Positions 1 to 42,321 of a stretch of 42,656 bases of DNA are shown here, piece after piece; the stretch's first letter is position 1; each line of letters opens with the position of its first letter. The stretch lies in the IMG/VR virus record IMGVR_UViG_2698536681_000004, one strand, 5' to 3'. The position numbers were made by a program, and so were the translations under genes. Source of the stretch: a virus. Its lineage: Duplodnaviria > Heunggongvirae > Uroviricota > Caudoviricetes. The notes below the pieces were generated by a model, which saw only the letters and a list, made by a program, of their open reading frames with translations, ran no database searches and was not told where the DNA came from.

Positions 1-792
1 GCCAACACCTTTTCCGCGTTCCTTGACCGCCTTTCCGATACCGTCTCTGCACGCAATACCTCCGGATTCCGTGAACAGGTCGCTGCATGGCTGGAAAAAC
101 TCAGTGCCTCTGCGGAGCTTCGACAGCAGTCTTTCGCTGTTGCTGCTGATGCCACTGAGAGCTGTGAGGACCGTGTCGCGCTCACATGGAACAATCTCCG
201 GAAAACCCTCCTGGTCCATCAGGCATCAGAAGGCCTTTTCGATAATGATACCGGCGCTCTGCTCTCCCTGGGCAGGGAAATGTTCCGCCTCGAAATTCTG
301 GAGGACATTGCCCGGGATAAAGTCAGAACTCTCCATTTTGTGGATGAGATAGAAGTCTACCTGGCCTTCCAGACCATGCTCGCAGAGAAACTTCAGCTCT
401 CCACTGCCGTGAAGGAAATGCGTTTCTATGGCGTGTCGGGAGTGACAGCAAATGACCTCCGCACTGCCGAAGCCATGGTCAGAAGCCGTGAAGAGAATGA
501 ATTTACGGACTGGTTCTCCCTCTGGGGACCATGGCATGCTGTACTGAAGCGTACGGAAGCTGACCGCTGGGCGCTGGCAGAAGAGCAGAAATATGAGATG
601 CTGGAGAATGAGTACCCTCAGAGGGTGGCTGACCGGCTGAAAGCATCAGGTCTGAGCGGTGATGCGGATGCGGAGAGGGAAGCCGGTGCACAGGTGATGC
701 GTGAGACTGAACAGCAGATTTACCGTCAGCTGACTGACGAGGTACTGGCCCTGCGATTGTCTGAAAACGGCTCACAACTGCACCATTCATAA
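1..792 (+). CDS. ipaH: IpaH-family type III effector, C-terminal NEL E3 ubiquitin ligase domain (5' partial; gene starts upstream of window)
   Basis: Frame 1 is open from base 1 to the stop at 790-792; translation FLDRLSDTVSARNTSGFREQVAAWLEKL...ESCEDRVALTWNNL...LALRLSENGSQLHHS matches the conserved IpaH/SspH NEL domain including the catalytic Cys in the CEDR motif. Confidence 0.85.
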   Translation, partial: ANTFSAFLDRLSDTVSARNTSGFREQVAAWLEKLSASAELRQQSFAVAADATESCEDRVALTWNNLRKTLLVHQASEGLFDNDTGALLSLGREMFRLEILEDIARDKVRTLHFVDEIEVYLAFQTMLAEKLQLSTAVKEMRFYGVSGVTANDLRTAEAMVRSREENEFTDWFSLWGPWHAVLKRTEADRWALAEEQKYEMLENEYPQRVADRLKASGLSGDADAEREAGAQVMRETEQQIYRQLTDEVLALRLSENGSQLHHS

Positions 793-828
793 TCACATCG
801 CATAAACCACAGACCGGACTGACTCCGG

Positions 829-855
829 AAAAACAGAGGCCCGCCCCCGGGCCTC
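829..855 (-). terminator. Intrinsic terminator hairpin between convergent ipaH and tail fibre assembly gene
   Basis: Perfect 8-bp GC-rich stem GAGGCCCG/CGGGCCTC (836-843, 848-855) with CCCC loop; on the minus strand it is followed by a TGTTTTT run. Confidence 0.45.
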
Positions 856-971
856 CCCGGATTCATCCGTTTCCCTGTTCAGCCTGACAGCACGCCCCCG
901 CGGCCGGATGACAGACTCCGCTTCGGTAAGCAAAGCGGTCTTCTGTGATTCCGCCAGTTGCGGCTTATTCA

Positions 972-1535
972 TTACTCAACGTCAAACGCCCGAATTGAAG
1001 CCAAATCATCCAGACCGCTCAGCTCCTCTTTCATTTCACGCTGACGGCGATAAATCTCATCGTTGCGATCGACCTGCGCCTGCACCATTGCTGCCGCCAG
1101 TTCTTCCAGTTCCGGCATCGACAGTTTCACCTGCTGATTATCGGCATCGCTCCACGCCATATGTGTTTGTGCTGTGACAGATTTTGCCAGCATGACTACC
1201 GGGGACAGGCGGCCCAGTGAGTTGGGGCCAGCATTCCAGATACGACCGTTCCATTCAAACGTGAACGGCTTCGCCTCCTGTTCTGTGCGCCATGCTTCAA
1301 TTTCCTGACGTCTGGCCTCTCTGGCCGCTTCCAGCATTTCTGGTGTCACAGTGAATGGGGCTATCTCACCCCATTTGCCACTTTGCAGTTCCTGCCAGAT
1401 TCGCTGACCCGTCGGTGCGACATCATCAGCGGTGGCTGTGTAGGGGACTGCCTGGTCCCTGTCGTCAAAAAAAACGTCACAGTCTACTGCGCCACTTTCG
1501 GTATAACGGGGATTAATGATTTTTTTAATTTCCAC
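972..1535 (-). CDS. Putative tail fibre assembly/chaperone protein (lambdoid remnant)
   Basis: ORF immediately downstream of the side tail fibre gene on the same strand; GTG at 1535 preceded by GAGGAA; longest ORF extends to 1595 but would overlap the upstream gene by 50 nt; family call by position and composition only. Confidence 0.5.
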   Translation of the reverse strand: MEIKKIINPRYTESGAVDCDVFFDDRDQAVPYTATADDVAPTGQRIWQELQSGKWGEIAPFTVTPEMLEAAREARRQEIEAWRTEQEAKPFTFEWNGRIWNAGPNSLGRLSPVVMLAKSVTAQTHMAWSDADNQQVKLSMPELEELAAAMVQAQVDRNDEIYRRQREMKEELSGLDDLASIRAFDVE

Positions 1536-1545
1536 GGTGCATTCC

Positions 1546-2718
1546 TCACGATGTGCGAATAAAAAGCCCGGGCATTGCGCCAGAGACATGAGCATCCGGC
1601 ACCCCGGACAGGGCGCAATATGACCCCGGTAATGAATGCTCTGAACATCCCGTAATGAAAAATTGTGGGGATGCTATATACGTTCCGGTGGGAGTACTGG
1701 GCACTGAAATCCCCACCGGTCCCAGTCGTGAGCCTCTGTATGACTGCCCCCTGACAAGTCTGATGACTTTATCACCGTCAGCTTCTCCCTGGTACGCAGC
1801 AATAATCAGCCCGCCAATGTCAGGGTCTCCCCATCTGTTGCAGACAGAGCTCGCCACGATTCTGTAAATAATATCTTCTGTGGTTATATTTATTTTCACC
1901 CAGCCAGTCAGTCTGGATATGGGCCAGTAGCAGTAGCGGGTGTGATAAATGGGGCCGTTAATGCCGTAAAAAGTAAGGGATTTGGCTCTGTACCTCGGTT
2001 CTGTTGTCTCAGGGCGTGCATCAGTCCACCGGATGCTGAGCACCCCTTCAAACCGTGTGTCGGGTATGATGATGTCGTAGGGGCCAGCAACGGAATATTC
2101 ACCTGGCAGCGCATTCCTTACCCAGGCCAGGAAATCACTCTTAGTGTCAAAACGGATAACATCTTCAGGCAGAAAAGCACACCCAAAGCCGAATGCGCCG
2201 GGTATCGCCAGACGGCCTTTTGTCCGGTCGTAAATGTCGCTCTGTGCTTCCATCGTGGCCGCACTTTTCAGCCCCAGATTATCCCGGGACTTCTGTTGTG
2301 CCTTTTCGCCTGCTGCTGCGATTTCAGACAGATGGTTAGCCGTTTTCAGAGTGCCGGTCAGCGCAGCATCAATGTCATTTTTGGCCTGCTCTGCTGCGCG
2401 GGCATAACCTGCGGCTGCCGCCACATCCTGCGCCGTCTGCTGTGCGTTTCCGGCTGCGGCCCCGGCGCTCTGCTGCGCCTGCGCCACCATTTCCTCAAAG
2501 CGTTTGACGACATCCGGTTTCAGGTCGCCCTCATCAGGAGCAATCAGAAAGTCATTCAGCGTGCCGGGCTTTGAGTCGTCGTATACAGCAATGTCGCCAA
2601 CGTTGTACTCGTTGTGCCAGCCCGGTTTCAGATACACACCATATTTTCCAGTCCGCGCATGGAAACAGTATTCACCATCGTTTCCTGTCATCACATCAGC
2701 AACAGTGTGCATCACCAC
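1546..2718 (-). CDS. stf: Lambdoid side tail fibre protein Stf, probably 5'-truncated by the adjacent IS66 end
   Basis: N-terminal region contains the conserved Stf motif VYDDSKPGTLNDFL followed by Ala/Gln-rich repeats; aligns with lambda Stf from about residue 40 onward; IS66 terminal repeat begins 17 bp upstream. Confidence 0.7.
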   Translation of the reverse strand: MVMHTVADVMTGNDGEYCFHARTGKYGVYLKPGWHNEYNVGDIAVYDDSKPGTLNDFLIAPDEGDLKPDVVKRFEEMVAQAQQSAGAAAGNAQQTAQDVAAAAGYARAAEQAKNDIDAALTGTLKTANHLSEIAAAGEKAQQKSRDNLGLKSAATMEAQSDIYDRTKGRLAIPGAFGFGCAFLPEDVIRFDTKSDFLAWVRNALPGEYSVAGPYDIIIPDTRFEGVLSIRWTDARPETTEPRYRAKSLTFYGINGPIYHTRYCYWPISRLTGWVKINITTEDIIYRIVASSVCNRWGDPDIGGLIIAAYQGEADGDKVIRLVRGQSYRGSRLGPVGISVPSTPTGTYIASPQFFITGCSEHSLPGSYCALSGVPDAHVSGAMPGLFIRTS

Positions 2719-2734
2719 TTCCGGGGTGTTTACC

Positions 2735-3300
2735 GTAAGCGTGCAGCAAGAACCGTATTGACGGGAATGTGTTATTCAGTCGGCAGTGCTACGCGCCAGG
2801 GGAGCAGTTCGCCGACCCGGTTTATCGGCCAGTCGGCTATGACGTCAAGGACATAGCGGAGGTAGCTTTCTGGCTCCACTCCGTTCAGTTTGCACGTCCC
2901 GATCAGGCTGTACAGCAGCGCTCCCCGCTCTCCTCCATGATCCGAACCGAAGAACAGGTAGTTTTTGCGGCCCAGACTGACCATCCGCAACGCATTTTCA
3001 GCGATGTTATTGTCCGCCTCAGCCCAGCCATCATCTGCATAGTACGTCAGCGCCGGCCACTGGTTCAGGGCATATGCGAACGCTTTCGCCAGTTCTGAGT
3101 GTCGCGACAGGGTTTTCATCTTTTCACGCAGCCAGCTTTCCAGGGATTTCAGCAGCGGTTTCGTTTTCAACTGACGTTCGGCAAGGCGCTGTTTCAGCAG
3201 GAAGATGTCGTCAGAAGAGATGTCGTTCATAAGCCCGTATTTTACCGGGCTTATTCTGTGACAACCAGGATAAAGAGATTTACAGCATGGTCAGGGAGGT
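2735..3300 (-). mobile_element. IS66-family element, 3' portion (terminal repeat starting GTAAGCG at 2735 plus tnpC C-terminal region)
   Basis: IS66-family inverted repeats typically begin 5'-GTAA; GTAAGCGTGCAGCAAG at 2735 lies just beyond the transposase C-terminus; upstream boundary with the prophage end is not resolved. Confidence 0.55.
2772..3230 (-). pseudogene. tnpC: IS66-family transposase TnpC (orf3), C-terminal fragment only
   Basis: Translation ...GRKNYLFFGSDHGGERGALLYSLIGTCKLNGVEPESYLRYVLDVIADWP...ELLPW matches the conserved C-terminal region of IS66 transposases; the N-terminal two thirds are absent and the frame closes at a stop at 3291-3293. Confidence 0.7.
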
Positions 3301-3337
3301 CAGCAGCCGCTTAGGCTGTCTATAGCGCGGCGATTTT

Positions 3338-3405
3338 TTTGATACCGATTTGCATTTCATTTGATACCGCTGAAAAACGCCGATACGCAACTTATTTGAT
3401 ACTAA
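3338..3405. repeat. Prophage right end (attR-like): three closely spaced TTTGATAC(C/T) motifs, putative transposase binding sites
   Basis: TTTGATACCG at 3338-3347 and 3360-3369, TTTGATACTA at 3395-3404; the same motif occurs three times in reverse complement at the other prophage end. Confidence 0.6.
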
Positions 3406-3448: not shown

Positions 3449-4186
3449 TCATTCACTCTCTTTCAAACCAGTTTTAACTGTTTGTGGTTTTGGGTAAGGC
3501 TGGACTTTGAATAGCTTTGTGTTAAGGCGTTTTCTGGCTCTCTTGTCCAGAAACCGGATGTAACGAAACTGACGGAATTTATGAACACTGGCTCTGTCGA
3601 TATTAGCCCGCAGATGTTCACCTCGCTGTCCTCCTCGTTTGATTGCATTCTTGCAAATCTCGTGATACCACTCGCCATCAAGTTCATAGAATGTTGTTTC
3701 ATGACTGCCTACATAATCAAAATTGCTTGCCTGGTACACGACACCAAGACAGCCACAACGCTCATCTGCAAACGACTGAACCCACTGCACCTGCGGATAA
3801 AGTTGTCTGATTAGTTTGAGCGCGTAACTGATTGCCCTTGATTCGGAGTTTCTCGGCATACAGTCATGCAGCCATAACCGGTTAAGCTCCATATATTCGC
3901 GGTTCTGCGTGCCAGTTACGACGCGTGCACCATTGTTTGGATTAAGGGCATAACCCCATTGCATTACGCCAACCAGCTCCCGTTCTGAAAATATGCCCAG
4001 ATGAAGGTAGGAATTATTTACGAAACGATGGCTGTAATGTTTATTGACGACGACCAGCCGGGCCAGCCAGCAACTTATTGTCTCAACCCGTAACTCACGG
4101 GAGCCATAACCGACGATATTGTCGTTATAGTGAATAAGTTCAGGCGTGCTGATGATACGGGATGTAACTTGCTTTCTGTTCCCCAC
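3449..4186 (-). CDS. mom: Mom-like DNA modification protein (start internal to the long ORF, approximate)
   Basis: ORF overlaps the 3' end of com exactly as mom does in Mu and is the last gene before the prophage end; the longest ORF (to 4381) would run through com so the true start is internal, candidate GTG at 4186; Mom family assigned by synteny. Confidence 0.55.
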
Positions 4187-4340
4187 GACAGGATTTCCTT
4201 GTGTATGTGGGGTGCTCTGTGGCGCTCTGAGATGTGATTTGATTGAGGGTTTTACAGCGCGGACATTTAACTTCCAGATAACTGAAGCTGGCTCGTGCCA
4301 GTAGCTTGTTACAATGTCGGCACCGTATGTTTCGATACAT
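4140..4340 (-). CDS. com: Com-like zinc-finger translational activator of mom
   Basis: ATG at 4340 preceded by AGGAGG; product [27 protein letters not shown] has the CxxC...CPRC zinc finger and strong similarity to Mu Com as recalled (IRCKNCNKLLFKA...IEIRCPRCK). Confidence 0.75.
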
Positions 4341-4383
4341 GGCCGCATAACCTCCTGCTTTGTTGTTGATATCTTTATCACTC

Positions 4384-4408
4384 AATCGATCGACAAAAAC
4401 GATCGATT
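4384..4408. promoter_or_regulatory. Perfect 9-bp inverted repeat with a GATC Dam site in each arm, upstream of com-mom
   Basis: AATCGATCG (4384-4392), 7-nt spacer ACAAAAA, CGATCGATT (4400-4408); GATC at 4388-4391 and 4401-4404, a third GATC at 4470-4473; sits about 45-70 bp upstream of the com ATG. Confidence 0.4.
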
Positions 4409-4596
4409 TGATTTATTTAATTGATACAACAAATAACACGAAATGTCATTAGCGAAAATTTATGAGTTTGATCACTAATTTTAAACGGTGCTGTAACGCA
4501 TAAGTGCTGAATGATTGTACATTTGAATACCGCAAAGCAAACAAATCAACTAATTTATAGAAGTCAATTGGTTAATTGCCAGCGTAAGAGGCTGCT

Positions 4597-4890
4597 ATGG
4601 ACAATCATGTAACGACGAGAAATCGAAAAATGATTGAAAATGCGGAAATCTATAATGATTATTTTTCCGATTATTCAGATGCCTGCAAATACAGTTCGAG
4701 TGCGGGAGAGTTCATATGCTTCAACTTTTTTATTAAATCTTATGTTTTTCCTCCACAGCAAGAAGATGGAGGTGTGCCACCTCCTGAAATCACTTTGCAC
4801 CGTATAGCCTCCGTCTCAATGATGGAGCAACAGGCTAATGAGCTGTATAGCATTCTGGGAACGATTCTACAAAAGCGTGAATCGGACTAA
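4597..4890 (+). CDS. Hypothetical protein, AT-rich ORF divergent from com-mom
   Basis: 97-codon ORF with AAGAGG 6 nt upstream of the ATG; AT-rich composition unlike the flanking phage genes; no family recognised. Confidence 0.4.
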   Translation: MDNHVTTRNRKMIENAEIYNDYFSDYSDACKYSSSAGEFICFNFFIKSYVFPPQQEDGGVPPPEITLHRIASVSMMEQQANELYSILGTILQKRESD

Positions 4891-5057
4891 TGATACCGGT
4901 TCATTTGCCTGCCCGGATGGGGAAGCAGGATTGACTGCTCCATAAGCAGCTATATTTCTGAATACGAAATACTATCCAGCGATTACATATGGCTGGATAG
5001 CGGCAAAGATGTTTTCATTAGTGTCAAACCGGCAGAGGACACCACCGGTTTGTATTG

Positions 5058-5312
5058 TTACATCATGGTACTGTCAGTTCCGGGCTGAGCCGGGTCTGGT
5101 TGCTCTGGCTGCGCGTCGGTTTTCGGCTCATTATCAGCATCACTGGCCGCAACTGCTGGCCCAATAAGTTTTGCCAGCACTTCATCAACGTAAGTGTCGA
5201 TTTGTGCCTCAAAATCCTTGCGGACCTGCGCTTTCAGCAACTTATTTACTTCACCGGAATACAGTGCCTGTTTTACCAGGTCTTCAGTGACGGTGCCTTT
5301 AATTTCTGGCAT
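5058..5312 (-). CDS. Hypothetical small acidic protein
   Basis: 84-codon ORF with AGGAGG 6 nt upstream of the ATG at 5312; no family recognised. Confidence 0.5.
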   Translation of the reverse strand: MPEIKGTVTEDLVKQALYSGEVNKLLKAQVRKDFEAQIDTYVDEVLAKLIGPAVAASDADNEPKTDAQPEQPDPAQPGTDSTMM

Positions 5313-5347
5313 GTATATCCTCCTTATGCGGGAATAAAGCCCTGCAA

Positions 5348-5530
5348 TCAGGGCTGGGTCGGGTCTTTTGGGAGCGGAGTTACCTGCGCTGTTTTACTGA
5401 GTTTTTCAGCTGCTGCGTCCTCAATTTTGCGGCGAACATAATTTCTGATGGCCTTATAACCACCACTCACCAGATATAACGCACATACTGCCGTGCAGAA
5501 ATACAATAAAATAAGCTGTAAAAATGTCAT
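5348..5530 (-). CDS. Hypothetical small membrane protein (single N-terminal transmembrane helix)
   Basis: ATG at 5530 preceded by GGGAGGG; product MTFLQLILLYFCTAVCALYLVSGG then a basic tail; no family recognised. Confidence 0.45.
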   Translation of the reverse strand: MTFLQLILLYFCTAVCALYLVSGGYKAIRNYVRRKIEDAAAEKLSKTAQVTPLPKDPTQP

Positions 5531-5579
5531 TATCCCTCCCAATTATTGACATGGTGTTGACACCGGTAATATCTGTTAG

Positions 5580-5674: not shown

Positions 5675-7729
5675 TTACGCGTTATTCACTTCCACCACGA
5701 TACTGTCAATCAGTACCGGGTAAGTCGCATTTTTAGTGATATCGGTCACGCGCAACTTGTCTGCCGTAAACGTGCCGACCGGAGACTGCGACAGCATGAA
5801 TGGTGTCCCGTCCTTACCATCAATGACCGGCGTCACCTCAATACTGTTGTTACCGGCAAAACGGAAGCCCAGCGTATGCCATTCGTTATTAAATGCGCCG
5901 AATGACCCCAGCTTCGTGTTCTGCGCCGTGTTTCCTTTGTGATACATCACGTTAAGGTCTGTGGCATCGCTCTGTACGTAGAACGATGCCAGCAGGTTAT
6001 GACCGGCATTTCCTTCCAGAGTAACCCCTTGCGGCAGGGCAGAAACCGGCCAGTACAGCGCCAGTGCGTACTGATTAGCCGTAAGCGCGCCATCGAGTTT
6101 AAAACGACAACTGACAAGACCACCTTTACCCAGCAGGTCCGCACCATTACCAGCATCATGCTCAAGGTACCAGGGGGCTCTTCCTGTTTCCTTGGTCAGT
6201 TTCATTGCCTTACCCCCGCTGGCTCCGGCATCATCCACGATTTGAGCCTTGCCACCTCCGGCAGCCCAACCCTGTGGTGTCAACCGTCCTTCAGACTCAG
6301 ATGCCCGGTAAGCAAATAGCGTACTCATCGTCGTGGTGTCTGCGGGTGGCGTGGACGGTTTTGATGGTGTATCAGGTGACGGCTTCTCATCCGGTGGTGT
6401 CACGGTCTGCCCACGCATCAGTTCAGCCGTGCGCCCTGCATGGAGCATAATAGCTGAGGCCAGACGGTCTGAAATGACGCCCCTGCGTGCCCATGAGCTG
6501 AAATGGCTGTCACGCTGTGTCGAAACAAAACTGCCCTGGGTTCGGGATGCTGCACCGTAATACCCGACAGCCACAATATCCGGGTCTTCCGCCGGAGCAT
6601 TCGTTGGCGTGCTCTGTCCATTCTCATCCGTCAGGAACGGTACAAAGAAAATTTTCTGTGCTTCCTTGCCTTTGTAGCCACCGTATACTGCCTCATATTT
6701 ATCGGTGCCAGCGTTTTTCCAGTAATACGTGGTATCACCGCAAATCCACGGCACCGTGGTGGCATTTCCACTCACGCACTGCGCAGCAAGCGGAGCCAGG
6801 TCAGTTCTGAACTGCTGAACCATGGCCGTGAATAAACTATTATGCTGCTGGCTTCCTGAGGCAAGGTCTGCCTCTCCCTGCATCCAGACCACAGCCAGAA
6901 GTTTGTTTTTCGGGTTTTTCGCCAGCGCGACTTTGGTGCGGCTTACCAGGTCCTGATACAGAGGTTTACCGGCCCCCCAGCGTGAAGAATCAGCGGAAGC
7001 ACCGCTGGCCTCACTGAATGAGCCGTCGGCTCCAGTGGTGAATGCTGACCCGCCACGACAACAGGGCACCAGAAGTATCCCGGCATTCTGTGGGATATAG
7101 GGAAGCAGTTTTTTGGCAATATGCAACCCCTGACCGACAGTCCCGTACTGGCCTTTTGCCAGATCAGCTTTCGGGTGGTTTATCCCGCTCATATCCTGAA
7201 CATCATGCAGGCAGTGGTCTGCCGGAATGATGTCGTTGTATGTACACGACGTACCGTTGGGCGTTACCGTACTGCGGCGTGCCAGTTGCTTAATGCGTGG
7301 GTCCGGGCGGTCAAACGAATCCGGTAACGGCAGCCCCTCGCCGTAGGCCATGCCATTTGACTGACCCGCGAGAATGACAACAAAGTAATATTCCGGCTCT
7401 GAACTGCTGCCATTCGTGCTACCGGAAGGCCCGGCGTTATCCGGTGCATTCCAGTCGGAGGGCGTGAGCGTTCCGGCCACGTCAGATGTGATTGGAATGA
7501 TGCCAGTCACGCCTGAACTGGTGATTTCTGCACTGGGATTACCGGATACCGGCATTACCCATAATGGCTCTTTCGTGCTGAAGCGGATCACGCAGTCTGC
7601 GAAGGTGATCCCCCCTTTATTACCCGAAGGGCGGAAAGGGCTTTCAATAAATGCCACCGTGCCACCGGCAACCTTGACTGAAAACTCTCCGGGCATGGCG
7701 GAGAGCATTTTCCACTTGGAGTCTGACAT
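5675..7729 (-). CDS. NanS-p-like sialate O-acetylesterase family protein (SGNH/DUF303 esterase with C-terminal lectin-like domain)
   Basis: Catalytic-type motifs VVILAGQSNGMAYGEG and VVWMQGEADL typical of SASA/DUF303 esterases; 684 aa, comparable to prophage NanS-p esterases. Confidence 0.65.
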   Translation of the reverse strand: MSDSKWKMLSAMPGEFSVKVAGGTVAFIESPFRPSGNKGGITFADCVIRFSTKEPLWVMPVSGNPSAEITSSGVTGIIPITSDVAGTLTPSDWNAPDNAGPSGSTNGSSSEPEYYFVVILAGQSNGMAYGEGLPLPDSFDRPDPRIKQLARRSTVTPNGTSCTYNDIIPADHCLHDVQDMSGINHPKADLAKGQYGTVGQGLHIAKKLLPYIPQNAGILLVPCCRGGSAFTTGADGSFSEASGASADSSRWGAGKPLYQDLVSRTKVALAKNPKNKLLAVVWMQGEADLASGSQQHNSLFTAMVQQFRTDLAPLAAQCVSGNATTVPWICGDTTYYWKNAGTDKYEAVYGGYKGKEAQKIFFVPFLTDENGQSTPTNAPAEDPDIVAVGYYGAASRTQGSFVSTQRDSHFSSWARRGVISDRLASAIMLHAGRTAELMRGQTVTPPDEKPSPDTPSKPSTPPADTTTMSTLFAYRASESEGRLTPQGWAAGGGKAQIVDDAGASGGKAMKLTKETGRAPWYLEHDAGNGADLLGKGGLVSCRFKLDGALTANQYALALYWPVSALPQGVTLEGNAGHNLLASFYVQSDATDLNVMYHKGNTAQNTKLGSFGAFNNEWHTLGFRFAGNNSIEVTPVIDGKDGTPFMLSQSPVGTFTADKLRVTDITKNATYPVLIDSIVVEVNNA

Positions 7730-7800
7730 CGTCTTTTCTGCCTGTTTCTGAATTAAACAGAGTCAGAATAGCGACCGCTGAAAAATATGTGTTTTGCGGA

Positions 7801-7834
7801 AATTCAAAAAAGCGTCACGGTACTTTTGGTGACG
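7801..7834 (-). terminator. Intrinsic terminator overlapping the invertase stop codon
   Basis: Stem CGTCAC (7813-7818) / GTGACG (7829-7834) with a 10-nt loop; on the minus strand followed by CTTTTTTGAATT. Confidence 0.5.
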
Positions 7835-8391
7835 GAGCTGGTGAGGCAGGAAAATAACGATAAAGGGTGGAAAGGCCAATATCAAATATCAGTGCGATTT
7901 GTTTACGGGACTCGCCATTAGCCAGCAAACGGGCGATTTGCTCCCGCTCTTTCTCTGTCAGTTTCTGAGGTCTGCCGCCATGACGCCCCTGAGCACGGGC
8001 AGCAGCAAGACCCGCGCGTGTACGTTCAATAATGAGTTCCCGCTCCATTTCCGCCAGCGCGCCCATTATATGGAAAAAGAAACGTCCCATGGGAGTGGAT
8101 GTATCAATATTGTCCGTAATGCTGCGGAAGTTAACGCCGCGTTGCCGGAGTTCTTCTGTTAAAAGGACAAGGTGCTGCATACTGCGTCCAAGGCGATCCA
8201 GTTTCCAGACCAGCAGGGTATCCCCTGGCCGGAGTCGCTTTAATGCGCGTTTAAGTCCGGGACGCTCCCTTGTCTTACCGCTTATTCTGTCTTCGAAAAA
8301 CAGCTCACATCCTGCACATTCCAGCGCATTTCTTTGTAGCGCCGTATTCTGGTCATTTGTTGACACCCTGATATACCCAATNNNNNNNNNN
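7815..8391 (-). CDS. gin: Serine recombinase, DNA invertase of the Gin/Pin/Hin family (first codons lost in the assembly gap)
   Basis: Translation IGYIRVSTNDQNTALQRNALECAGCELFFEDRISGKTRERPGLKRALKRL...GRFFFHIMGALAEMERELIIERT is near-identical in pattern to Gin/Pin; reading frame runs into the N-run at 8392. Confidence 0.9.
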
Positions 8392-8723
8392 NNNNNNNNN
8401 NNNNNNNNNNNNNNNNNNNNNNNNNNNNNNNNNNNNNNNNNNNNNNNNNNNNNNNNNNNNNNNNNNNNNNNNNNNNNNNNNNNNNNNNNNNNNNNNNNNN
8501 NNNNNNNNNNNNNNNNNNNNNNNNNNNNNNNNNNNNNNNNNNNNNNNNNNNNNNNNNNNNNNNNNNNNNNNNNNNNNNNNNNNNNNNNNNNNNNNNNNNN
8601 NNNNNNNNNNNNNNNNNNNNNNNNNNNNNNNNNNNNNNNNNNNNNNNNNNNNNNNNNNNNNNNNNNNNNNNNNNNNNNNNNNNNNNNNNNNNNNNNNNNN
8701 NNNNNNNNNNNNNNNNNNNNNNN
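8392..8723. other. Assembly gap (332 N)
   Basis: Uninterrupted run of n characters. Confidence 1.
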
Positions 8724-8883
8724 CAGGCAGGTAATGTACGGTGGGGCATATTACTCTGCGTACGGTAATGTTATGGCAGGCCTGCAGATTGACAGTAAAG
8801 TTGATGCTTCAAACGATTTTATAGCATTCAGACCCCTGCAAAAATTAGTCGGAGGTACATGGATTACGGTATCTCAGTTATAA
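8724..8883 (+). CDS. C-terminal fragment of an alternative tail fibre variable domain (5' part in gap)
   Basis: Last 52 codons before TAA at 8881-8883 end ...FRPLQKLVGGTWITVSQL, homologous to the C-terminus of the minus-strand tail fibre (...[18 protein letters not shown]). Confidence 0.45.
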
Positions 8884-8934
8884 ATAGTCAGTAAATAATA
8901 TATTTTAAAACAGATTTATTTCCAGGAGGATTTT

Positions 8935-9456
8935 ATGGAACTAAAAAATATAACCCGTTATTATCCTGAAAATATGCCATATGGTAATAATGTTCAGTAT
9001 TTCCAGAGTGAAGATGGTAAGGATTTCTACGAATCCCTGCCATTATTCACCAAAAAATATAAACTTTGCATAACACCTGACAGCGGCGTTATCTGCTCAA
9101 TATCACAGGACGCCTCGGCGCTGTATCCTGCGGGGTTTTCTGTGGTTGAGGTCGATGAACTCCCTGAAGGCACGGATATTTCAGGAAACTGGAAGTTTGA
9201 TAATGGCATAATCTCCCGTATTCCGGTTAACTACGCAAGAAAACTGGAAGCAATGCGCCAGTCATATCTTAATCAGGCATATGAAAAAATTAATGACTGG
9301 AGAACGGAGCTACAACTGGGCACCATCAGCGATGAAGACAGAGCAGCACTTACCCAATGGATGGCATACATCAGTCAGGTGAAGAAAATGGAACTACCCG
9401 CCATTAAAACAGAAGCTGAATTTAACGCCATTAAATGGCCTGAGCAGCCACAGTAA
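8935..9456 (+). CDS. tfa: Tail fibre assembly protein (Tfa/U-like)
   Basis: CAGGAGG 7 nt upstream of the ATG; C-terminal region LTQWMAYISQVKKMELPAIKTEAEFNAIKWPEQP resembles the conserved Tfa C-terminus; follows the alternative fibre tip on the same strand. Confidence 0.75.
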   Translation: MELKNITRYYPENMPYGNNVQYFQSEDGKDFYESLPLFTKKYKLCITPDSGVICSISQDASALYPAGFSVVEVDELPEGTDISGNWKFDNGIISRIPVNYARKLEAMRQSYLNQAYEKINDWRTELQLGTISDEDRAALTQWMAYISQVKKMELPAIKTEAEFNAIKWPEQPQ

Positions 9457-9459
9457 TAA

Positions 9460-9479
9460 AGAAGGCCGGAAGGCCTTCT
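9460..9479. terminator. Hairpin between convergent tfa and tail fibre genes
   Basis: Perfect 8-bp stem AGAAGGCC/GGCCTTCT with GGAA loop; weak flanking T-runs. Confidence 0.35.
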
Positions 9480-9487
9480 GAATATCA

Positions 9488-10369
9488 TTATATACTTGCA
9501 GCCGTCACCCATGCTCCATTTAACAGATACTGCAACGGCCGGTAATACACGCCGCCGACGTTATCTGCCGTATTCTTACCGACATCCTGTACTTTAATTC
9601 CGGTAAGAACATTGCCGCCCCCCAGATTCAGATCCCAGCTTTCCCATGTTCCGGGCATATGTGCGGTCACCGACCCCAGTCTTATGGCGGTTACTGTTCC
9701 TGATGAGATAGTGATATCCTGCGTCCCGTCAAAGGGAACACCATTAATTGTGTGGGCATTTGCCAGCCTGTTCGCGGCAACGGCGGTGCCGTCCGATGGC
9801 AGGGCATTCGCCGCCCTGTTTACCGTTTCCCGTAAACCGACGTTATCGATAAAAGCCCCTTTATCCGGAATGTCTGCGCCGTTCTGCTCCCTGCGCAGGT
9901 AACGGTTATCACCTTCGCTTTTGCTGTAAACATCCAGATTATTACGGGCGGTTCCCTTATTCTCCAGGTCGGCGAGATTCTGATCCTTCGCCAGGGCATT
10001 AACGTCAGCGGGACCAAGACTGTTTTTTGTGGCAAGCGTCCCCAGACCAAGATAACCACGGGCCAGACGCTGGGCCTCCGCACCGGCATCAGCAATTTCT
10101 TTCAGGTTATTTTTCCGGGAAAAGGCATTCGCAGCGATAATGGCTTTAATGGACAGCGTAAGCTGGTTTAACTGCGCCTTATCCGGCTGAATACTGGCTT
10201 CAGCCAGAATATTCAGCAGTTCGGCCTGGAGAATATTCAGCCAGTCCTGACCAATCCAGCTGATACCTTTTTGTCCGTCACCTTCGGTAAACCAGGTGGT
10301 GGTATTACTCTGCGCCGGTGCCAGCGCAGGCATATTCGCCACGCCGGAATTATTATCAACATGAAACAT
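9488..10369 (-). CDS. Tail fibre protein (Mu S-like; constant N-terminal part joined to a variable C-terminal part)
   Basis: Last gene of the tail/baseplate operon, followed by tfa and invertase; contains an internal gix-like recombination site. Confidence 0.75.
9827..9852. other. Candidate Gin/Pin-type recombination site (gix-like) inside the tail fibre gene
   Basis: TTCCCGTAAACC GA CGTTATCGATAA compared with gixL as recalled TTCCTGTAAACC GA GGTTTTGGATAA; encodes residues about 171-180 of the fibre. Confidence 0.55.
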
Positions 10370-10929
10370 TAAATAGTCTCCTCTTCATGGCTGTTTGCAT
10401 AAACGTAAATAAACGTCTGCCATGCAGGCTTATAACGGTTCAGAATACATTCCAGCGCACCGCCTTCATAAATACGCAGCGGCGTGAGAATATCATCCAG
10501 CACATTCATATTCCGGTAGCCGGTTTCACTGTTAATCGTGACAATACTGACCCACTGCGAATCCGGTGAGGGCTGAATGTCAATCTGATAACCAAACTCC
10601 GCCGCAAACCGGATATAAAATTCACGGTTCAGCGAGGGCTTCATCCGGTATTTATTTCCGGCATAACGCTGTCGCTCCGTGAGGGTGGCTCCGGCCATAT
10701 CACACTCGGGAAGCCCGAGATAACGCTCCCAGTCTTCCAGCAGCAGGCGCGACGTGTCAGGGAAACGCTCGGCAAGCAGCTGTTTACCCGTCCAGGATAC
10801 ACGCGCTGTCGAATGACTGAGGCCCAGACATAATGATGCCAGTACGGATGACGGACGCTTGTCCCATGCCAGCCCGTCAGGCAGTAACTGCAACAGGGCG
10901 CGCTGATGCGGGGTCAGGGTTACAGCCAT
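10369..10929 (-). CDS. Mu gp48-like tail protein (DUF2313-like)
   Basis: Position between baseplate J-like gene and tail fibre; overlapping start/stop with neighbours. Confidence 0.6.
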
Positions 10930-42000: not shown

Positions 42001-42321
42001 CCTGGTTATATGTCGCCAGTCGATACCTTCCAGCAGCATCGCCAGCTGCGCCTGTGTAAGGAACACTTTGCCATCACGGGCTGACGGCCAGGCGAAGCGC
42101 CCACGCTCCAGCCGTTTGGTCAGGAGGCACAGTCCGTCACTGGTGGACCACAGCAGTTTAACCTGACTGCCGCTGCGGCCCCGGAAAATGAAAACATGGC
42201 CGGACATGGGATCGTCTTTCAGCGCCGTCTGTACTTTCGCAGCCAGGCCGTTGAAGCCATTTCTCATATCGGTGATACCGGCAACCAGCCAAATTTTGAT
42301 CCCGGAAGGTAACGGGATCAT
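41998..42321 (-). CDS. tnpB: IS66-family accessory protein TnpB (orf2)
   Basis: Translation MIPLPSGIKIWLVAGITDMRNGFNGLAAKVQ...DGKVFLTQAQLAMLLEGIDWR matches IS66 Orf2; the C-terminus may be altered by the prophage junction. Confidence 0.8.
   Translation of the reverse strand: MIPLPSGIKIWLVAGITDMRNGFNGLAAKVQTALKDDPMSGHVFIFRGRSGSQVKLLWSTSDGLCLLTKRLERGRFAWPSARDGKVFLTQAQLAMLLEGIDWRHITR

Follow-up and report, generated by a model that had tools for sequence, protein, structure and literature searches.

A compact, probably Gin/gix-driven tail-fibre switch with a single assembly gene in an Sp18-like, Mu-like prophage

The DNA considered here is the IMG/VR virus record IMGVR_UViG_2698536681_000004, a stretch of 42,656 nucleotides that is referred to below as the window. 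Between positions 7815 and 10369 it carries a serine DNA invertase gene of the Gin family, a run of N, the 3′ end of an alternative tail-fibre tip, one tail-fibre assembly (chaperone) gene, tfa, and a short tail-fibre gene that converges on the preceding two (Table 1). A first-pass annotation, made from the sequence alone, had described the region as an invertible tail-fibre switch with a gix-like recombination site inside the fibre gene and only one assembly gene. Judged from its gene content, the region appears to be the equivalent of the G segment in a Mu-like transposable prophage of 38.7 kilobases (kb; window 3321–42010), and the invertase together with an inverted pair of gix sites very probably switches the fibre between two tips. 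What the single assembly gene does in such an arrangement is weighed separately.

Table 1. Features of the fibre locus and of its surroundings. Positions are those of the window, except for gixR, which is given for L001, the corresponding locus of NZ_AP022815 (bp: base pairs).
Feature	Position	Strand	Remarks
Invertase gene, Gin family	7815–8381	−	Codons 3–190 and stop; codons 1–2 inside the N run
N run	8382–8723		342 N
Tip B, 3′ end	8724–8883	+	Silent alternative; last 52 codons and stop; no promoter or start of its own
Spacer	8884–8934	+	51 nucleotides, AT-rich; tip B to tfa
Shine–Dalgarno sequence of tfa	8924–8929	+	AGGAGG, five bases 5′ of the ATG
tfa	8935–9456	+	173 codons; sole tail-fibre assembly gene of the prophage; homologue of Mu U and U′
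Hairpin	9460–9479		AGAAGGCCGGAAGGCCTTCT; G+C-rich; between the convergent genes; terminator-like on the − strand, just past the fibre stop
Fibre gene	9488–10369	−	293 residues, Mu-S-like; convergent with tip B and tfa
Tip A	9488–9826	−	Variable tip, the one now expressed; no tfa behind it
Inverted-repeat arm	9717–9857		gix site and common start of both tips; other arm in the N run
Perfectly repeated stretch	9717–9739		23 bp, inside the arm
gixL	9827–9852	+	TTCCCGTAAACCGACGTTATCGATAA; 26-bp recombination site within the fibre gene; GA core 9839–9840
gixR	L001 3754–3779		TTCCTGAAAACCTCGGTTTACGGGAA; partner site, inverted relative to gixL; in the relatives' equivalent of the N run
Constant fibre part	9853–10369	−	N-terminal, outside the invertible segment; Mu S baseplate-attachment part
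NEL domain	280–792		C-terminal domain of IpaH-type E3 ligase; left-flank remnant
DUF4376 protein	972–1595		Left-flank remnant
Lambdoid "prophage tail fibre N-terminal" protein	1546–2718		Left-flank remnant
IS66 transposase fragment	2772–3230		Adjoined by the Mu-like phage
DUF826 and DUF1378 genes	5058–5312 and 5348–5542		Small genes beyond the esterase
NanS-p-type 9-O-acetyl-sialate esterase	5675–7729	−	684 residues; between invertase and com/mom

The invertase has the architecture of the small serine recombinases: an N-terminal catalytic domain (Pfam Resolvase, expectation value E 2.5e-51) with the catalytic serine (Ser9/10) in the motif IGYIRVSTNDQ, followed by a C-terminal helix-turn-helix (HTH_7, E 4.8e-15). 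It is 74% identical to Mu Gin over 184 residues, so the original assignment to the Gin/Pin type holds. A run of five A (A5) in its gene is intact in the window and frameshifted in some relatives. The deletion of one base from this run is seen at position 3379 of loci L014, L015 and L017 (about 8078 in the window), which are defective copies in strains DLI.5a and TOE17; it may be a true frameshift, flipping having occurred earlier or in trans, or a homopolymer sequencing error.

The fibre matches Mu tail fibre S (PDB 5YVQ) and an S/S′ construct (8JU3) with E of about 1e-46 over its first ~190 residues, and its last ~70 residues match the same structures weakly. The constant part is 47% identical to residues 1–191 of Mu S. 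The two alternative ends are likewise related to the two Mu fibres: tip A has homologues in the distal domains of Mu S′ (8JU3) and of a short tail fibre (9CUY), and tip B in the last ~70 residues of Mu S. Tips A and B are 41% identical to each other over their distal 61 aligned residues, a divergence consistent, as far as sequence goes, with binding to different receptors. On the minus strand, 3′ of the fibre stop, no tfa-like open reading frame was detected, the only one being a 60-residue frame antisense to the plus-strand tfa. The fibre as now joined has no assembly gene behind it, as the first-pass annotation had said, and its picture of a plus-strand tip with tfa converging on a minus-strand fibre was borne out in every coordinate.

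The recombination site within the fibre gene is gixL. It is identical to Mu gix TTCCTGTAAACCGAGGTTTTGGATAA (taken from the Mu genome) at 22 of 26 positions, with the GA core in common; it is unique in the window, and 100 shuffles gave no match at up to three mismatches. The crossover lies within the fibre codons for ...NVGLRETV..., the same position as in Mu. No inverted partner was found in the assembled part of the window by a scan with three gix references at up to seven mismatches. A weak gix-like sequence, TTACCGGATACCGGCATTACCCATAA (7539–7564, plus strand), lies in the NanS-p gene; its core is GG, it runs in the same direction as gixL, and with seven mismatches it is taken as a chance match, one of 20 shuffles having given a comparable one. 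An inverted-repeat search within 7700–10500 returned only short pairs at chance level, since the true partner would be masked by the N run.

The likely content of the gap is provided by relatives. Positions 7700–10500 were compared by megablast with complete Escherichia coli genomes, at least 80% query coverage being required. Eighteen genomes match in the window's arrangement, 17 of them at 99.2–100% identity across the interval, and in these 17 the equivalent of the gap measures 285 bp (L001 3683–3967). The window differs from L001 at none of 682 bp on the left of the gap and at 6 of 4,720 bp on the right. The fill comprises the first codons of the invertase (ML), an intergenic stretch of 65 bp, gixR and the first ~64 codons of tip B, and with them the second arm of the inverted repeat. 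gixL and gixR have the inner half-site TTCCCGTAAACC and the GA core in common. Of the two inverted 26-bp sites with identical cores, one is thus in the window itself and the other is seen, as a proxy, in genomes identical to both of its flanks, which is where the first-pass annotation had suspected the partner to be hidden. Both sites, with their GA cores, are kept even between lineages whose DNA identity is only ~80%. Each forms part of an inverted repeat of 142 bp, with arms 87% identical, because the two tips have a common start past the sites. From core to core, the invertible segment is 1,317 bp long.

For the window's own strain, the partner site is an inference from these relatives, and the N run is 57 bases longer than their 285-bp fill. 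Derivatives locked by loss of the invertase and gixR do exist (see below), and a gap that concealed a deletion or rearrangement, with no partner site, would mean that the switch is dead in this genome. This is extremely unlikely. Both flanks of the gap are present and match the invertible form as closely as just described, and the window keeps its invertase and tip B portions, the first almost wholly and the second mostly missing from the locked form. The discrepancy in length would be accounted for by the fact that the lengths of N runs in scaffolds are estimates.

That the segment inverts is evident from public genomes, which served as a proxy for whether it has a single fixed orientation. 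As in Gin, Hin, Cin and Pin systems, both orientations occur: 18 complete genomes have that of the window and six the opposite one, the latter in a search with the arrangement of L002 (strain NCCP 13983). In L002, a 296-residue fibre ending in tip B is followed by tfa on the same strand, and tip A is silent, so that the predicted gain of an assembly gene by the alternative tip is realised there; the tip B 3′ end in the window is identical to the C-terminus of this fibre. Both junctions are in frame, and the 293- and 296-residue products have identical N-terminal parts through GLRETV. The Mu-type exchange of C-terminal tips by a crossover inside the fibre gene is present here. An exact-sequence look-up of the joined isoforms in public assemblies found isoform A in at least 997 contigs and isoform B in 271 + 41; for the lineage of the Sp18 type, the tfa-less isoforms occur in 128 + 840 contigs and the tfa-linked ones in 451 + 205. 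Many truncated "partial" fibre proteins lie at contig ends in public assemblies.

Two comparisons are consistent with a crossover at the gix sites. The clearest is that within strain DLI.5a, whose two defective copies (L014 and L015) are identical over 5.6 kb except for 3802–5046, which is an exact reverse complement. Between the gix sites, no polymorphism lies outside these boundaries, and the interval in which the crossover took place therefore takes in the gix cores. The second comes from the Sp18-type lineage, where the inner half-site begins with A or T: the base that stands at gixR in L006 stands at gixL in L007, which is the swap predicted by exchange at the core.

This relatively simple picture is complicated by several observations that weigh against it. 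Between L002 and L004, a block of 1,071 bp (3890–4960) is exactly inverted, and the crossover lies in the internal 23-bp repeat, ~110 bp inside the gix sites, and not at gix; the start of the tip is chimeric, and the two strains come from one collection. Copies with a frameshifted invertase are found in both orientations, and both DLI.5a copies have the one-base A5 deletion; not every flip, therefore, needs the element's own invertase. For Gin, a Fis-dependent recombinational enhancer acts in cis from the 5′ part of the invertase gene; a scan with the degenerate Fis motif GNNYRWWWWWYRNNC gave two candidates in Mu gin, and the matching positions here are only partly conserved. Taken together with the mosaic repeat arms of other strains (L016), which are consistent with gene conversion, the first two of these observations could mean that the inversions are mainly the work of RecA-dependent homologous recombination between the 142-bp, 87%-identical repeats, the invertase and gix sites being vestigial. 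Such an origin is unlikely, given that the window and most relatives keep an unbroken invertase reading frame, as close to Gin as stated above, that the gix pair is conserved across the diverged lineages, and that the L014/L015 inversion and the L006/L007 half-site swap are consistent with exchange at the core. The L002/L004 chimera could be a polishing artefact of a culture of mixed orientation, and a frameshifted copy could still flip in trans, Gin, Cin, Pin and Hin being known to complement one another. The 23-bp repeat was also considered as a secondary gix site, but neither an AAACC half-site nor dyad symmetry is present in it, and homologous exchange or an assembly artefact is likelier. 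The differences away from gix are read as a secondary process: homologous exchange or gene conversion in the 142-bp repeats, invertases acting in trans, or assembly artefacts of mixed cultures.

Site-specific inversion by the invertase remains the strongly favoured explanation, and its proposed course is as follows. The Gin-family invertase would recombine gixL in the fibre gene with gixR, which would lie beside the invertase start under the N run, probably assisted by Fis and an enhancer. This would invert the 1,317-bp segment and exchange the last ~113–116 codons of the short Mu-S-type fibre for those of the other receptor-binding tip, which should change host range. Flipping would mostly be due to the invertase rather than to homologous recombination. 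In the orientation of the window, tip A would be expressed, and the late transcript would pass the tip A stop and the hairpin and then run antisense to the sole tfa. In the other orientation, tip B and then tfa would be transcribed in series.

The second question is how two tips are served by one assembly gene. tfa belongs to Pfam Caudo_TAP (E 4.8e-19) and PHROG 136, its product shows 28% identity with Mu U and 32% with Mu U′, and it is the only tfa listed in the RefSeq annotation of the identical prophage. The early remark that there is only one assembly gene extends well beyond this prophage: each of the 11 related loci fetched (~80–100% DNA identity; O157:H7, other Shiga toxin-producing E. 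coli (STEC), and a Mu-like insert in Stx phages) has exactly one tfa. The tip without tfa is always of class A or A2 (motif TGI.VQD.G...ADN.GGVYYRP), and tips B, C and D are those found beside tfa. An own assembly gene behind each tip, as in the S–U and S′–U′ pairs of Mu, is not what is found here.

Several lines of evidence point to a chaperone that is not tied to its neighbour. The ratio of nonsynonymous to synonymous substitution rates (dN/dS) is 0.07–0.12 for tfa-less tips and 0.11–0.13 for tfa-linked ones, at a synonymous divergence (dS) of 0.3–0.8. Purifying selection on the tfa-less tips is as strong as on the tfa-linked ones, and so the element is not in a dead state when it lies in the tfa-less orientation. 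Among L001, L009 and L010, the N-terminal domain of Tfa is 86–96% identical, and the adjacent tips are only 33–46% identical to one another and 41–48% to tip A; Tfa does not co-vary with its adjacent tip. It is this N-terminal domain that binds the fibre (PMC9608196). Tips 45–52% identical to tip A are found in SfMu, a P1-like phage and a Vequintavirinae phage, each with a tfa directly 3′, so that this type of tip is normally a Tfa client.

Further evidence comes from a locked lineage, comprising E. coli M3, CI5, S1-CAM-01-A and M18 (L011, L020, L021 and L022). One deletion, with a common junction, took out gixR together with the greater part of both the invertase gene and the silent tip, leaving a tfa-less tip (A or A2) fixed in convergence with tfa. 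The tip remnant has decayed, with common indels; tfa is intact in all four strains, with dN/dS of 0.11–0.16 at dS of 0.22–0.43. There are also signs that tfa may be expressed independently. It has a Shine–Dalgarno sequence of its own, and its distance from the upstream tip is 51–120 nucleotides among relatives, against 2 nucleotides between S and U in Mu. In three lineages, an 88-nucleotide spacer 5′ of tfa (L009 4117–4204, L010 4012–4099, L011 3247–3334) is 91–100% identical; the difference among the three, put at 3–9%, is well under the synonymous divergence of the adjacent tfa (dS 0.22–0.43), and the preservation of this spacer suggests a regulatory element.

On these grounds (selection on both tips, the lack of co-variation, the client homologues, the locked lineage, and the ribosome-binding site and conserved spacer), the favoured reading is that of one generalist Tfa, made from its own expression signal and serving both tips in both orientations. 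As a proposal drawn from sequence comparison, it has about an even chance of being correct, and some findings count against it. The 51-nucleotide spacer of the window's lineage is unrelated to the conserved 88-nucleotide one; consensus scans in four lineages revealed no consistent sigma-70-like promoter 5′ of tfa, hits being no more frequent than in shuffled sequence; and no activator box was identified for the gene. In the locked lineage, recombination with invertible relatives may have brought in tfa alleles, which could explain part of the purifying selection seen there. A candidate late-activator box, TTATN6ATAA, was also sought; its one copy in the window, at 5324–5337, is in an irrelevant place, and the candidate was dropped.

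Alternatively, tip A may fold and trimerise without Tfa, which would then serve only the adjacent tip (B, C or D), so that inversion would toggle the phage between a bare and a Tfa-capped fibre. With the segment in the A orientation, tfa and the fibre gene converge on the hairpin between them, and no promoter was detected for tfa; the tfa-less tip always belongs to one class, which suggests a property specific to that class; and assemblies most often show the A orientation. The homologues of this class that have their own tfa behind them elsewhere, the purifying selection that keeps tfa intact in the permanently A-locked lineage, and the failure of Tfa to co-vary with its neighbour make this possible but less probable than a generalist chaperone. 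The A orientation might even be an off state, in which no Tfa is co-transcribed, no fibre is assembled and the particle is non-infective until the segment flips: tfa is then outside the late operon, and the Mu fibre requires Tfa to fold and trimerise (PMC9608196). This is very unlikely, as the distal parts of tips A and A2 have dN/dS of 0.07–0.10 at a synonymous divergence of 0.35–0.5 or more, values not expected of unused sequence, and intact fibre and tfa genes persist in an entire lineage that is fixed in this orientation.

It is tentatively proposed that the layout with one tfa is by design, either because a generalist, orientation-independent Tfa chaperones, and perhaps caps, either tip, or because the A-type tip became independent of Tfa. 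In the latter case, inversion would switch the tip and the presence of Tfa together, and Mu Tfa is known to stay on the fibre tip and to contribute to receptor recognition (PMC9608196). Either way, the specificity of Tfa would be uncoupled from the identity of the tip, which the model of paired S–U and S′–U′ genes does not predict.

What had escaped the first-pass annotation is that the region corresponds by homology to the G segment and is part of a complete Mu-like prophage, and that the invertible region of this family has already been published, for Sp18. The window aligns from 3321 to 42010 with the prophage of NZ_AP022815, whose RefSeq annotation lists an XRE repressor, Mu transposase (A), an AAA ATPase (B), Gam, Mor and lysozyme, followed by Mu-type head and tail genes, homologues of the baseplate genes gp45–48, the fibre, tfa and the recombinase, and then Com and Mom. 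Mom and Mu Gp48 were also matched by Pfam in the window. MuA and MuB, Mu-type morphogenesis, com and mom, and varying insertion sites are all as in Mu-like transposable phages, and the prophage is related to Sp18 of E. coli O157 Sakai. Its insertion site is rhsC in JE86-ST05 and adjoins an IS66 fragment in the window; the flanks differ between the two, as expected of a transposable phage.

The prophage is bracketed by direct repeats of 4 bp, TGTC in the window (3317–3320 and 42011–42014) and CACG at rhsC in JE86-ST05; the target-site duplication made by Mu is 5 bp. Its ends (3321 and 42010) read TATAGCG...GGTTATA, unlike the TG...CA of Mu. The left flank, positions 1–3320 of the window, is a separate prophage remnant. 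It carries, among other genes, the NEL domain of an IpaH-type ligase, and the host is therefore Shigella- or enteroinvasive E. coli-like. The DUF4376 gene in this flank was considered as a second assembly gene and rejected, as it is part of the ipaH-carrying remnant outside the Mu-like element.

On the other side of the invertase lies the large esterase gene, whose catalytic part matches NanS (3PT5, E 1.8e-117) and whose C-terminal domain matches NanS-p (6YP6, E 7e-98). As a NanS-p sialate O-acetylesterase, it was rejected as a candidate for a second chaperone or fibre 3′ of the invertase. NanS-p, DUF1378 and DUF826 genes form a set that is typical of Stx and lambdoid phages, and this block therefore resembles a moron cassette in a Mu-like prophage.

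The locus has practical consequences. It breaks or scrambles short-read assemblies, as evidenced by the N run here, the "partial" fibre proteins and the chimeric repeat arms, and the assembled orientation of the segment should not be taken as a property of the strain. The conserved layout of one chaperone and two tips offers a compact natural system for testing Tfa specificity, which is relevant to the engineering of phage and tailocin host range. The locked lineage, which keeps its chaperone gene although this is not co-transcribed with the fibre, is a testable curiosity in its own right.

Among known systems, the closest functional model is the G segment of Mu. Both segments follow baseplate genes of the gp47/gp48 type and precede com and mom; both have a Gin-type invertase (74% identity) that reads away from the segment, a 26-bp gix site with the same GA core in the same codons of a homologous fibre gene, and tips whose distal ~70 residues are homologous to those of Mu S and S′. 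The segment is much shorter here, at 1,317 bp against 3,059 bp in Mu, as is the variable part of the fibre (113–116 against ~320 residues). The NanS-p esterase, DUF1378 and DUF826 genes between invertase and com/mom have no place in Mu. Finally, there is one tfa here, with a 51-nucleotide spacer and its own ribosome-binding site, against two in Mu, the distance there being 2 nucleotides; Mu has two sets of fibre and fibre-assembly genes (PMC11915804).

The nearest relatives by sequence are the loci of O157:H7 and other STEC, with ~86% DNA identity. They too have an invertase, a silent tip, a single tfa, a short fibre, a YmfQ-like gene and, 3′, a NanS-p gene. The O157:H7 loci are equated with Sp18 by serotype and Mu-like context, not via the Sakai record itself. 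Sp18-type loci have tips C and A2, unlike the B and A found here, and their Tfa is 61% identical to that of the window. An invertible host-specificity region has been published for Sp18 of E. coli O157:H7 Sakai; the published passages on Sp18 that were consulted do not mention its single-tfa asymmetry, and the literature searched contained no description of a G segment with a single tfa.

Similar switches occur more widely. In the C segment of P1 (Cin/cix), the C-termini of fibres are swapped by a Gin-family invertase; Cin is 67% identical in DNA to the invertase gene here. Fibre C-termini are also exchanged by the Gin-family invertase Pin in the P segment of e14. The G segment of SfMu and the corresponding record of a P1-like phage have tips 47–52% identical to tip A and, unlike the window, two tfa genes each, one behind each tip. 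Inversion of fibre genes by Gin-type enzymes has been textbook matter since Mu and P1. Beyond transposable phages, Ein of the Pectobacterium tailocin carotovoricin inverts part of a tail-fibre locus, by which a constant N-terminal part reportedly gains alternative C-terminal domains (PMC13195805). Seen against these examples, the switch described here is a compact Gin/gix fibre switch of an Sp18-like, Mu-like prophage, of an ordinary kind that will not surprise specialists. The single assembly gene is its one real departure from Mu, and this is not an accident of one strain.

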